This document shows, piece after piece, positions 5,170 to 33,727 of a DNA stretch of 33,727 nt. Position numbers and translations under genes: made by a program. The stretch comes from Acidimicrobiia bacterium (GTDB taxonomy: Bacteria > Actinomycetota > Acidimicrobiia > Spongiisociales > UBA5794): positions 1 through 33,727 of the forward strand of contig BTQP01000003.1 in assembly GCA_036985935.1 (NCBI GenBank). The letters run 5' to 3'. The first letter of the stretch is position 1. Each line of letters begins with the position of its first letter. Under the pieces are notes generated by a model, which did no database searches, was not told the origin of the DNA, and saw nothing but the letters and a program-made list of their open reading frames with translations.

Positions 5170-5618
5170 GATTCATCCGAACTGTCTGCGACCTCATCGG
5201 CCGGTGCGGGTACTTCTTCTTCGGGAGCCTCTTCGACGACGTCTTCAACGACGTCTTCGGCAACCTCTTCAACAGCCTCTGCGACGACGTCAGCGACCGC
5301 CTCGACCTTGTCTTCTGCGACAGGCTCGGGGGTGTCCCCAACGGTGTGAATGTCTCCCTTGGCGATTCTGAACTGGGTCCAGGCACCGGAGATCTCAAGC
5401 AGCTTCTGCGCACGCTCGGTTGGCTGAGCACCTGTGTTGAGCCAGTAGAGCGCTCTCTCGTTGTCGATCTTGACGAGCGACGGCTCTTGTTTCGGATCGT
5501 AGATCCCGAGCTGCTCGATGTACTTTCCATCGCGCTGTTTGCGTGAGTCGATCACAACAACGCGGTACGTCGGCTGCTTCTTCTTGCCAAGCCGCGTCAG
5601 GCGGATCTTGACTGCCAT
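5166..5618 (-). CDS. rpsP: 30S ribosomal protein S16 with long acidic C-terminal extension
   Basis: [42 protein letters not shown]...[20 protein letters not shown] upstream. Confidence 0.97.
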
Positions 5619-31777: not shown

Positions 31778-32395
31778 CTAGATCTCGTCCAGCAGTCTCT
31801 GACGTTTCTCCTCGTACTCCTCCTGGGAGATGAGGCCCTCGTCGAGCAGCTCTGCGAGTTTCTTTATCGAATCCGCGGCATGCGGTTTGAGTTCCTGTGT
31901 CGTCTCGGTCCGACCCGACAGATCCATCGTTCTCCGCTCACGAACCTTGTAGAGCGTCGTCTGGAACCGGTCGGGTCGAGGGATGTTGTAGAAGGTGCTT
32001 TGCCCCGACGAACCGGCCGACTCGATCAACAGGTCACCGGCCCCAAGCATCCGTTCGAAGACCGTCTGGGAGAAGTTCACGTTGGTGATGTTCTCGAGCG
32101 GGATCTCGACCCCGGATTGAGCGATGAGACCGGTCCGGGTGATCAGACGCTCTGTGGTCAGCACATATCTCGTGAACCACCAGTTGATCAAGGGTCGCAC
32201 AATGAGGTAGAGACCGGCGAGCAATACCACGAGTGAAATCCAGACGGCTGCGTCGTCGGTGAACCCGAACGCCAAACCGATAACGATCAGGACGCCGAGG
32301 AACCACAAGAACGGGATGAACAACAATTTCCAATGAGGACGAAACGACGTAACGATCGTCTCGTCAACACTCAACGCATCTTCGGGCCAAGACAT
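31778..32395 (-). CDS. Membrane protein with bacterial PH domain and C-terminal SHOCT domain
   Basis: RPHWK, two TM helices, YVLTTERLITRTGLI...IPLENI...Q...ERMLGAGDLLIESAG and C-terminal KKLAELLDEGLISQEEYEEKRQRLL. Confidence 0.88.
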   Translation of the reverse strand: MSWPEDALSVDETIVTSFRPHWKLLFIPFLWFLGVLIVIGLAFGFTDDAAVWISLVVLLAGLYLIVRPLINWWFTRYVLTTERLITRTGLIAQSGVEIPLENITNVNFSQTVFERMLGAGDLLIESAGSSGQSTFYNIPRPDRFQTTLYKVRERRTMDLSGRTETTQELKPHAADSIKKLAELLDEGLISQEEYEEKRQRLLDEI

Positions 32396-32440
32396 GAGGC
32401 CAGCATAGAGAACTCGCGCAGCGAGCGCATTGACTACATG

Positions 32441-32490
32441 AACGCGAGAAACCCCAAGGAAGCCGAAGCCCCCTTGGGGTTCTCCACGTT
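32441..32490 (-). terminator. Long terminal hairpin / putative intrinsic terminator of structured RNA 1
   Basis: Minus strand AACGUGGAGAACCCCAAGGGGGC-UUCG-GCUUCCUUGGGGUUUCUCGCGUU forms about 22 bp. Its G-U wobbles are valid only on the minus strand. No long U-tract follows. Confidence 0.7.
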
Positions 32491-32791
32491 GCCTCGGGCC
32501 TTTCGGCCTCCGGTTCCGCTGCGTCCCTTCCGGTCTTTCAACCGTCCGTTTCGCTGCTCCGCAAGCGGAGCTGGATGTGGATCGAAACCCGCACCCTCCT
32601 CATGTGCCTCGTCGACCGAAGCCGAGCGGGCGGGGCCTAAGCCCTCGACACCCGAAGGTGCCTCACAAGGTCCCCGATTCGTCTCCGAACCGGCTGCCGG
32701 CTGTGACACCGGCCGCCTCCGGTTTCCCGTTGGCGCTCGCTCCCGAGTTGCCCCGTTTGCGAGCCGCTCAGGGTTTCCCCCTTGCGGTAAT
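32441..32791 (-). ncRNA. Candidate ~350-nt tetraloop-rich structured non-coding RNA (family not recognised)
   Basis: About 13 consecutive hairpins on the minus strand, capped by GAAA x4, GCAA, GAGA, UUCG x4, CUUG, UUAG and one larger loop. G-U pairs fix the strand. There is a candidate promoter upstream and a terminal hairpin, and no credible ORF. Confidence 0.8.
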
Positions 32792-32796
32792 AGTCA

Positions 32797-32824
32797 ATGT
32801 TGCAGACTTTGTAGCGTTCGGCAA
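32797..32824 (-). promoter_or_regulatory. Putative sigma-70-type promoter for structured RNA 1
   Basis: Minus strand TTGCCG (32824-32819), N16, CAACAT (32802-32797). The first hairpin starts 10 nt downstream of the -10. Confidence 0.5.
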
Positions 32825-32890
32825 GCCAGATCGCTGGTTCGTTTTCGCGAGTCACGACGAGTTTTCGCGCTCGGCTGGTAGCTTTCCCAG

Positions 32891-33541
32891 ATGCGGCGCA
32901 AAACCGGTCGATTTCCCGTCAAAATTCGATTCGTATGGGCACTTTTGCTCGCATTTGCGATGGTCGCGGCCGGATGCACAGTTAGCCAGTCACCTCTGCC
33001 GGACACGACAACAACACGACAGCCAGCGGATGTGCCCGTGGCCGATGAGCTCACACTTCACACCGAAGGCATCGGTCCGTACGAGGTCGGGGACGAGGCC
33101 GAGTTCGTCATTGCAGGCATCACAAACGCGATCGGCGGCTGGGACGCCGACTCCTCGGATGAGGCCTCTCCCGTTCAGCTCCCCGAATGCGGGGATGCTT
33201 CCTCGAGGGTCGTGTCATGGGGTTCACTCGCGCTCGTGTTCGTACGGGGGTACGCACGCGAGACGTTCGTGAGTTGGTCGTTTGGTTTCGATCCCGTATC
33301 GGGGAACTCCGACGACCTACGTGGGCTCGGTCTGCGCACCGAAGCAGGAATCGGACTCGGCGCGACGAGACAGGAGCTCGAAGATGCGTACCGAGCAGGA
33401 CTCGAAATCACGAATCAGCCTGCCATCGATTCAGCGATCTTCGCCATCGACAAAGCACAGGAACCGCACCTCTCAGGCAAACTCGATTCTTCCGGGCCAC
33501 AAGGCATCGTCGACCTCATCCAGATCGAGCCGACATGCTGA
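32891..33541 (+). CDS. Hypothetical lipoprotein
   Basis: Basic N-terminus, hydrophobic stretch ending VAAGC (lipobox-like), Pro/Thr linker and an acidic globular domain. -10-like TAGCTT lies 6 nt before the ATG. Confidence 0.8.
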   Translation: MRRKTGRFPVKIRFVWALLLAFAMVAAGCTVSQSPLPDTTTTRQPADVPVADELTLHTEGIGPYEVGDEAEFVIAGITNAIGGWDADSSDEASPVQLPECGDASSRVVSWGSLALVFVRGYARETFVSWSFGFDPVSGNSDDLRGLGLRTEAGIGLGATRQELEDAYRAGLEITNQPAIDSAIFAIDKAQEPHLSGKLDSSGPQGIVDLIQIEPTC

Positions 33542-33551
33542 GAGAACTCCC

Positions 33552-33604
33552 AAAAGAGAAACCCCGAGGAAGCTCGACCGAAGTCTCGCCCTCTCGGGGT
33601 TCTC
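33552..33604 (-). terminator. Terminal hairpin plus U-tract (intrinsic terminator) of structured RNA 2
   Basis: Minus strand GAGAACCCCGAGAGGGC-GA-GAC-UUCG-GUC-GA-GCUUCCUCGGGGUUUCUC-UUUU. Confidence 0.75.
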
Positions 33605-33727
33605 AATTGAAGTGAACAAGTTCACTCCAGTCCGAGATTCGCCAGTTGCCCGACTCCTCCCGGGGTGTTCTCGTCGCATTCGCAGACCGAAGTCGTCGCC
33701 TGTGACCAGAACCCGCTGCTCCGAACC
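33552..33727 (-). ncRNA. 3' part of a second tetraloop-rich structured RNA (5' end beyond the window)
   Basis: Minus-strand hairpins GAC-UUCG-GUC, CCGGGA-GGA-GUCGG-GCAA-CUGGC-GAA-UCUCGG and GGAGUGAA-CUUG-UUCACUUC, then a terminal hairpin homologous to that of RNA 1. Confidence 0.68.

Follow-up and report, generated by a model that had tools for sequence, protein, structure and literature searches.

Analysis of contig BTQP01000003.1 (33,727 nucleotides, nt; this whole stretch is called the window and all positions refer to it) from an Acidimicrobiia bacterium of the order Spongiisociales led to two look-alike hairpins, which are probably the 3′ modules of two sibling small-RNA genes, RNA1 and RNA2, with a shared promoter and a shared terminator or 3′-end module. 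As far as sequence comparison can tell, these form a previously undescribed small-RNA gene pair carried by nearly every genome of this Acidimicrobiia order. The window is the entire contig C3 of the source assembly (GCA_036985935.1, hereafter G000; 1,857,804 bases in 205 contigs, 60% G+C, 81% complete), while other G numbers label related genomes and L numbers their loci. The coordinates that an initial annotation of the window had given for the hairpins were borne out by the sequence and by pattern search:

32446..32484, minus strand: terminal hairpin of RNA1, short "T1" form (sequence and pattern search)
33556..33604, minus strand: terminal hairpin of RNA2, long "T2" form (sequence and pattern search)

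The pattern GAGAACCCC-N(12-42)-GGGGTTTCTC has two matches in the window, both on the minus strand, with 0.00 expected from 100 shuffles. The full hairpin motif was found twice in the whole G000 assembly, both times in this window, and a search of G000 with R1, a covariance model of the hairpin trained on pattern-collected hairpins, returned two matches as well. The RNA strand of both hairpins is the minus strand. Specifically, R1 scored copy 1 (32438-32489) at 65.5 bits on the minus and 36.4 bits on the plus strand, and copy 2 (33548-33609) at 51.0 and 22.2 bits, an advantage of ~29 bits for the minus strand. The minimum free energy (MFE) of copy 1 is -35.1 kcal/mol on the minus vs -25.3 on the plus strand (hairpin z-score -6.7), and that of copy 2 is -33.8 vs -26.8 kcal/mol (z-score -4.4). 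This gain of 7-10 kcal/mol on the minus strand stems from two neighbouring pairs, which are G.U there and would be C/A on the plus strand. A DNA-level operator was rejected as a reading of the element, as the spacing of the arms differs between the short and the long form and the G.U pairs fit one strand only.

Copy 1 forms one continuous helix: its outer stem, GAGAA/UUCUC, has a single bulged U, its 12-bp core includes two G.U pairs, and a UUCG loop caps it; the 3′ tail is UUUCUCGCGU. Copy 2 shares the outer stem and the core, apart from an A.C mismatch in the latter, and is extended by a GA/GA internal loop, a 3-bp GAC/GUC stem and a UUCG loop; its 3′ tail is UUUCUCUUUUGG. The c-UUCG-g loop of the two copies and a GA/GA-containing extension of copy 2 had been recognized in the initial annotation. 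Both are present when the hairpins are read on the minus strand, the extension being the GAC/GUC stem flanked by the GA/GA internal loop. The identity of the plus-strand left arms at 17 of 18 positions was likewise confirmed on the sequence. The right arms differ at a second site as well (c vs t on the plus strand), which turns a G-C pair of copy 1 into the A.C mismatch of copy 2 on the RNA strand.

The two hairpins end structured RNA bodies, as had been supposed, and these bodies are located as follows:

32485..32788, minus strand: body of RNA1, ~300 nt (fold z-score, homologues, consensus structure)
33605..33727, minus strand: 3′ part of the RNA2 body, its last 123 nt, ended by the contig end

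RNA1 is complete in the window and would run from ~32788 to 32440 on the minus strand, with the start near 32788 placed from its promoter block. The remainder of RNA2 was found on no other G000 contig. The T2 region of the closest relative matches only window positions 33553-33712 (84% identity), and the RNA2 bodies of relatives are ~400 nt long with the same promoter block upstream. The fold of RNA1 has a z-score of -5.98, and the T1 consensus structure contains 70 pairs, 23 of them with compensatory changes; its alignment comprises 18 of 28 T1 sequences, and the other ten carry long insertions or are near-duplicates. The bodies consist of successive hairpins with GNRA or UUCG loops and often a purine-rich internal loop. 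Those of RNA1 and RNA2 have diverged beyond alignment: a profile of T1 bodies matched none of 12 T2 bodies, a T2-body profile matched one of 28 T1 bodies weakly (11 bits), and an 8-mer count over 51 units returned tetraloop hairpin words as the only common words, with no general body motif.

Two further observations concern individual bodies. At L086:1196-1572 (plus strand, G017) the RNA body contains four further copies of the 10-mer CCCGAGAGGG, the 5′ arm of the terminal hairpin, which fold into small GAGA-capped hairpins, so that in principle this arm, too, could self-fold. Additionally, the short RNAs of family f3 (~150 nt; L087, L089, L094, L096, L099) have another hairpin, about 40-70 nt ahead of the terminal one, whose near-constant loop GGGG(G)CCCGCUUUCC is a candidate for a single-stranded seed or a pseudoknot partner.

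The second part common to both RNA types is the promoter block. For RNA1 it comprises the following elements:

32796..32869, minus strand: promoter block of RNA1 (alignment of 37 such blocks)
32861-32869, minus strand: first box, CGCGAAAAC
32841-32849, minus strand: second box
32819-32824, minus strand: -35-like TTGCCG
32796-32801, minus strand: -10-like AACATT

The consensus of the 37 aligned blocks reads CGCGAAAAC, ~11 nt, (T)CGCGAAAAC, ~16 nt, TTGC(G/A), 17 nt and a -10-like hexamer (CANNNT or TANNTT). An order-wide search with an nhmmer profile placed the block upstream of 51 of 65 hairpins, in the same orientation and at distances of 116-577 nt. As tandem siblings would be, the RNA genes are adjacent, have a promoter block each and are mostly two per genome. 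RNA1 and RNA2 probably arose from one ancestral gene of the order, with both ends kept and the bodies diverged; the shared ends are the promoter block with its two CGCGAAAAC boxes and the long GC-rich hairpin followed by UUUCUC.

The distribution of the hairpin was studied with R1 in 151 genomes of the class (G000, 36 others of the same order and 114 of other orders). Matches were found in 34 of the 36 other genomes of the order, and in only two of the 114 outside it, both weak (E-values 0.001 and 0.006). By family, the genomes with a match were 5/5 in f1, 14/15 in f3, 1/1 in f5, 2/2 in f6, 7/7 in f9, 0/1 in f11 and 5/5 in f12. The matches are mostly two per genome, on the same strand and 0.3-1.2 kb apart, with three in a row in G028 and G029. 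In the closed genome G059 (L125:4648-4687, minus strand, and 5188-5227, plus strand) the two hairpin units are divergent, one directed at a bPH_2-SHOCT gene and the other at a PD-(D/E)XK gene, and the tandem layout is therefore not universal. BLAST with the 451-nt RNA1 region recovered the whole RNA at 70-80% identity in six of nine same-genus genomes. In other genera of the family the same search recovered only two islands, namely the hairpin (100% identity over 41 nt in G016, 82% in G021, 96% in G022) and a 30-nt piece upstream (query bases 1-30, window 32821-32850), which is 93-100% identical in G021, G022, G015 and G011, of four other genera. The initial annotation had called for a search of the genome and its relatives, with the question whether such hairpins follow tetraloop-rich regions or ordinary genes; they end structured RNA units, mostly with an upstream promoter block.

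When 185,579 species, each represented by one genome, were scanned with the exact pattern, 58 stretches were obtained, most of them labelled as Acidimicrobiia, Acidimicrobiaceae, Actinomycetota or Actinomycetes. The remaining ones were two "Kiloniellales", one "Acidobacteria", one "Armatimonadetes" bin and three without a taxon name. The contigs L055 and L066 ("Kiloniellales"), L061 ("Acidobacteria") and L067 ("Armatimonadetes") belong to public metagenome-assembled genomes that carry the exact hairpin, and these four are probably mis-binned Acidimicrobiia DNA.

Concerning the helix itself, the initial annotation had noted that an A/G difference of the left arm faces T/C in the opposite arm, and this compensatory change recurs in the hairpins of other genomes. 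The flagged pair is G-C in 34, A-U in 29, G-U in two and unpaired in none of 65 hairpins; the pattern behind this set admitted any of the four combinations at the two sites and fixed most of the core. Among 57 order-wide R1 matches it is G-C in 49 and A-U in eight, with no G-U and none unpaired. Over the whole helix 89.4% of the cells in these 57 matches are paired, vs at most 67.5% with the partners slid, and eight pairs have changed on both sides, a number reached by one of 500 shuffles. The closing pair is C-G in 33, U-G in 15 and U-A in nine matches. Common ancestry with selection on RNA structure, which had been proposed from the two copies, is supported by the covariation, by G.U pairs that exist on the minus strand only and by the same two hairpin types lying side by side in many genomes. 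Other positions are held constant: a G.U wobble is kept in 57/57 matches and is never G-C, the position opposite a C is mostly A.C (37 of 57 are not a standard pair, the others being A-U in ten and G-C in ten), and CCC/GGG and an A-U pair are invariant as well. These letters stay the same, whereas stems of the adjoining body vary freely through compensatory changes. The long form (core with the A.C mismatch, internal loop, short stem, UUCG loop) is the rule across the order, and the short RNA1 form, which is restricted to the family of the window and close kin, looks like the loss of the tip. Some T1-like copies have a GNRA loop in place of UUCG with the stem unchanged; the stem, not the loop, is therefore the conserved feature.

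Intrinsic termination is the most likely function of the hairpin. By their MFE and z-scores, both copies are the stable GC-rich stem-loops that intrinsic terminators have, and a GC-rich stem, a stable loop, UUUCUC and a short unit with its own promoter together make the anatomy of such a terminator. Moreover, the upstream GAGAA could pair with the U-rich tail, giving a nearly blunt 3′ helix that would confer resistance of the released RNA to 3′ exonucleases. At the same time, the letters of the hairpin seem to be kept more strictly than termination needs. With an invariant G.U, a mostly kept A.C and fixed letters beside freely changing stems, a second role besides termination is therefore plausible, and our guess is that the hairpin also offers a specific contact surface, either for a protein or for the GNRA loops of the RNA itself.

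Several results weigh against this interpretation. The tail of copy 1 has only four U before GCG, so that termination there could be weak or factor-dependent. A simple terminator scan calls neither full hairpin and lists instead an internal segment of copy 2 and a small stem at 32415-32429 that belongs to neither copy, while a simple E. coli-type sigma-70 scan of 32300-33727 called no promoter. Of nine sequencing runs listed, none is on record as RNA. The strictness of the hairpin is partly shaped by the 65-hairpin collection, as R1 was trained on hairpins of which the pattern had fixed most of the core, and the R1 E-values are rough; with a match lacking in only two of the 36 other genomes of the order, few divergent versions are likely to have been missed. 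Concerning the additional role, the partner candidates looked for in five genomes were scarce, with Hfq in 0/5, L7Ae in 0/5 and CsrA (PF02599) in 1/5.

The same constancy could be read the other way round, with the hairpin above all a specific protein-binding site and the RNAs decoys or scaffolds like CsrB/RsmZ, 6S or Y RNAs, for which termination would be secondary. A conservation beyond what pairing needs (the G.U, the A.C, CCC/GGG and the A-U) would suit such a site, as would bodies made of reiterated hairpin modules with purine-rich internal loops, the two to three co-regulated copies per genome and the switch of the loop from UUCG to GNRA on a preserved stem. The scarcity of known partners argues against it, a U-rich tail after a GC-rich stem is needed by a terminator anyway, and one hairpin per RNA means a low titration capacity. 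We regard this alternative as rather unlikely.

The RNA genes lie at one syntenic place, with genes for a PD-(D/E)XK nuclease and an AdnAB-like helicase-nuclease on one side and the bPH_2-SHOCT gene on the other. Two neighbouring genes of the window are of importance here:

31778..32395, minus strand: bPH_2-SHOCT membrane-protein gene, 50 nt downstream of hairpin 1 (Pfam PF03703, PF09851)
32891..33541, plus strand: lipoprotein-like open reading frame (ORF) between the RNA genes, convergent with RNA2, no Pfam family (stop codon 15 nt from hairpin 2)

In 27 of 35 loci the last hairpin is followed, 13-198 nt downstream, by a co-oriented bPH_2-SHOCT gene, and riboswitches usually have this layout of a large structured RNA with a terminator-like hairpin behind it. 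RNA1 and its hairpin could accordingly be imagined as a cis-acting leader, a riboswitch or attenuator, of this gene. Such a leader is improbable, since RNA2, with the same promoter and hairpin, precedes a convergent gene here or the promoter of the next RNA elsewhere, and the bodies (116-577 nt) are too variable for one ligand pocket. The bPH_2-SHOCT gene itself has a -10-like TATGCT 6 nt before its ATG in the window (junction 32396-32445), and TANNNT stands 6-9 nt before its start, with no Shine-Dalgarno sequence, in 23 of 26 junctions of relatives (counted by eye) as in the window; the other three junctions are without TANNNT and two of them have a GA-rich stretch resembling a Shine-Dalgarno sequence. 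The gene is therefore most likely leaderless and driven by a promoter of its own, and no co-oriented gene dependent on read-through, as a riboswitch or attenuator has, was found. Across the class, 109 of 151 genomes encode the protein. Among them are 75 of the 114 from other orders, in which the promoter block was present in 0/9 of the 700-nt upstream regions searched (nine genomes) and the hairpin gave the two weak matches only. The RNA cluster therefore looks like an order-specific insertion into an older intergenic region. The adjacency of the RNAs and the bPH_2-SHOCT gene is inherited and speaks only weakly for a functional link. The stem at 32415-32429 (minus strand), located between hairpin 1 and the bPH_2-SHOCT start, is small and terminator-like, with 5 pairs followed by AGTTCTCTAT, and overlaps the presumed -10 region of that gene.

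By tblastn the lipoprotein-like ORF was found in G008 (L017), G004 (L018/L085), G016 (L020) and G011 (L023), and in no other of the relatives' loci searched, e.g., those of G003 and G021, where the RNA genes abut. The proximity of hairpin 2 to the stop of this ordinary opposite-strand gene, together with the nearly palindromic shape of the hairpin, would suit a generic repeat, that is, a REP-like (repetitive extragenic palindromic) element, a reused common terminator or the end of a mobile element. This explanation is largely refuted and we give it next to no weight. The hairpin stays where the lipoprotein-like gene is missing, and REP-like elements would be dispersed in many copies after unrelated genes, whereas G000 holds two and its relatives mostly two, in tandem, at one syntenic locus; a repeat behind many ordinary genes, which the initial annotation had named as the finding that would count against it, was not encountered. 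Its suggestion of a mobility signal is not supported, with two copies per genome at one fixed chromosomal place. Viral contigs gave 0 hairpin matches and plasmids none, and the search for a linked transposase or reverse transcriptase that it had proposed returned no such family among the neighbour genes scanned with Pfam.

The double box of the promoter block is not confined to the RNA genes. In five genomes the exact pattern had 10 matches, vs 0 with a reversed control: seven at RNA loci, two upstream of dnaA and one upstream of a class II ribonucleotide reductase gene (Pfam-confirmed). When one mismatch in one box was allowed, the double box was found upstream of dnaA in 5/5 further genomes, of four families; in all, CGCGAAA(A)-N11-16-CGCGAAA is present upstream of dnaA in 8/8 genomes examined, with dnaA confirmed by Pfam in seven. 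Upstream of the gene for class II (B12-dependent) ribonucleotide reductase it occurs in G000 and G016. The loci of relatives are L113, L120, L121 and L148-L152, and those of G000 outside the window are the following:

C85:2767-2810, plus strand: double box upstream of a gene read as dnaA
C9:15780-15817, minus strand: double box upstream of a gene read as nrdJ
C36:2539-2587, plus strand: double box upstream of a small ORF of unknown kind

With the double box at dnaA and nrdJ, the RNAs may therefore share a regulator with replication initiation and the supply of deoxynucleoside triphosphates. A more far-reaching and doubtful proposal is that the hairpin docks an RNA-binding protein and that the siblings, under this CGCGAAA box of the dnaA/nrdJ type, take part in a replication- or growth-coupled RNA regulation unique to these Acidimicrobiia.

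Known RNA families gave no counterpart. Rfam 15 had 0 matches in the whole window at the gathering threshold, and with E-values up to 10 the region 32300-33727 gave three chance-level matches only, far below the cut-offs (a frameshift-site motif, a Brucella small RNA in its terminator part only, and a plant microRNA). There is no tRNA or tmRNA in the window, and raiA RNA (RF03072) was found in 0/5 genomes by a search without a positive control, which is thus weakly informative. A full-text literature search, with supplements outside its reach, retrieved no paper on the locus and none describing regulatory RNAs of Acidimicrobiia. 6S RNA (RF00013) was found in 0/5 genomes; its niche looks empty, and the present large RNAs with conserved promoters could be thought to fill it as 6S- or Ms1-like RNAs that bind RNA polymerase, the hairpin being their closing stem. 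This is very improbable, as the consensus fold consists of separate hairpins one after another, with 5′ and 3′ ends that do not pair with each other, and not of a rod with a central bubble, the two to three copies have unrelated bodies, and no Rfam match rose above chance. Ms1 in particular was rejected, since the genes described as flanking it in the consulted sections of its report, for a HAD hydrolase and an oxidoreductase, are not the neighbours found here (PMC9130861); Acidimicrobiia have 0 mentions in that paper (PMC9130861).

Acidimicrobiia are abundant in marine, sediment and vent samples and mostly uncultured, and R1 can be used as a metagenome marker of the order. The locus offers three handles, namely a promoter element shared with dnaA and nrdJ, a freely evolving body and a sequence-frozen 3′ hairpin. 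If the hairpin binds a protein, it would point to an RNA chaperone or partner in a phylum lacking Hfq; if it is only a terminator, it would provide a useful, very strong and portable terminator model for high-GC Actinomycetota.

The arrangement resembles that of OmrA/OmrB in E. coli, adjacent paralogous small-RNA genes with their own promoters under one upstream control element, whose RNAs have conserved ends, including the terminator hairpin, and a divergent middle. The present genes are also adjacent, with their own promoters bearing the same control element, constant ends and a divergent middle. Unlike OmrA/OmrB, these RNAs are far larger (116-577 nt) and densely structured, Hfq is found in 0/5 genomes, and the constant parts are promoter and terminator, with no obvious single-stranded seed. 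The hairpin shares with intrinsic terminators the GC-rich stem-loop, the stable UUCG loop and the position at the end of a short unit, with a candidate U-rich tract directly behind it and an upstream A-rich stretch that can pair with this tract. Ordinary intrinsic terminators drift freely in sequence, whereas this one keeps its letters, its G.U wobble and its A.C mismatch order-wide, and the U tract of copy 1 is short. CsrB and RsmX/Y/Z are paralogues under common regulation; they have a conserved activating element upstream, are built from repeated hairpin modules and end in a terminator, and each of these features has a parallel here. In contrast to these sponges, the purine motifs of the present RNAs lie in internal loops and not in hairpin loops, and CsrA (PF02599), which RNA-carrying genomes would need, is found in only 1/5. 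Finally, raiA RNA is, in the sections of its report drawn on here, a large structured non-coding RNA of Acidimicrobiia among other classes, with an unknown biochemical function (PMC10861870). The present RNAs are likewise large, structured and non-coding and belong to the same class, but while raiA is described in those sections as single-copy and typically without terminator stems (PMC10861870), they are mostly two per genome and carry a terminator-like hairpin.

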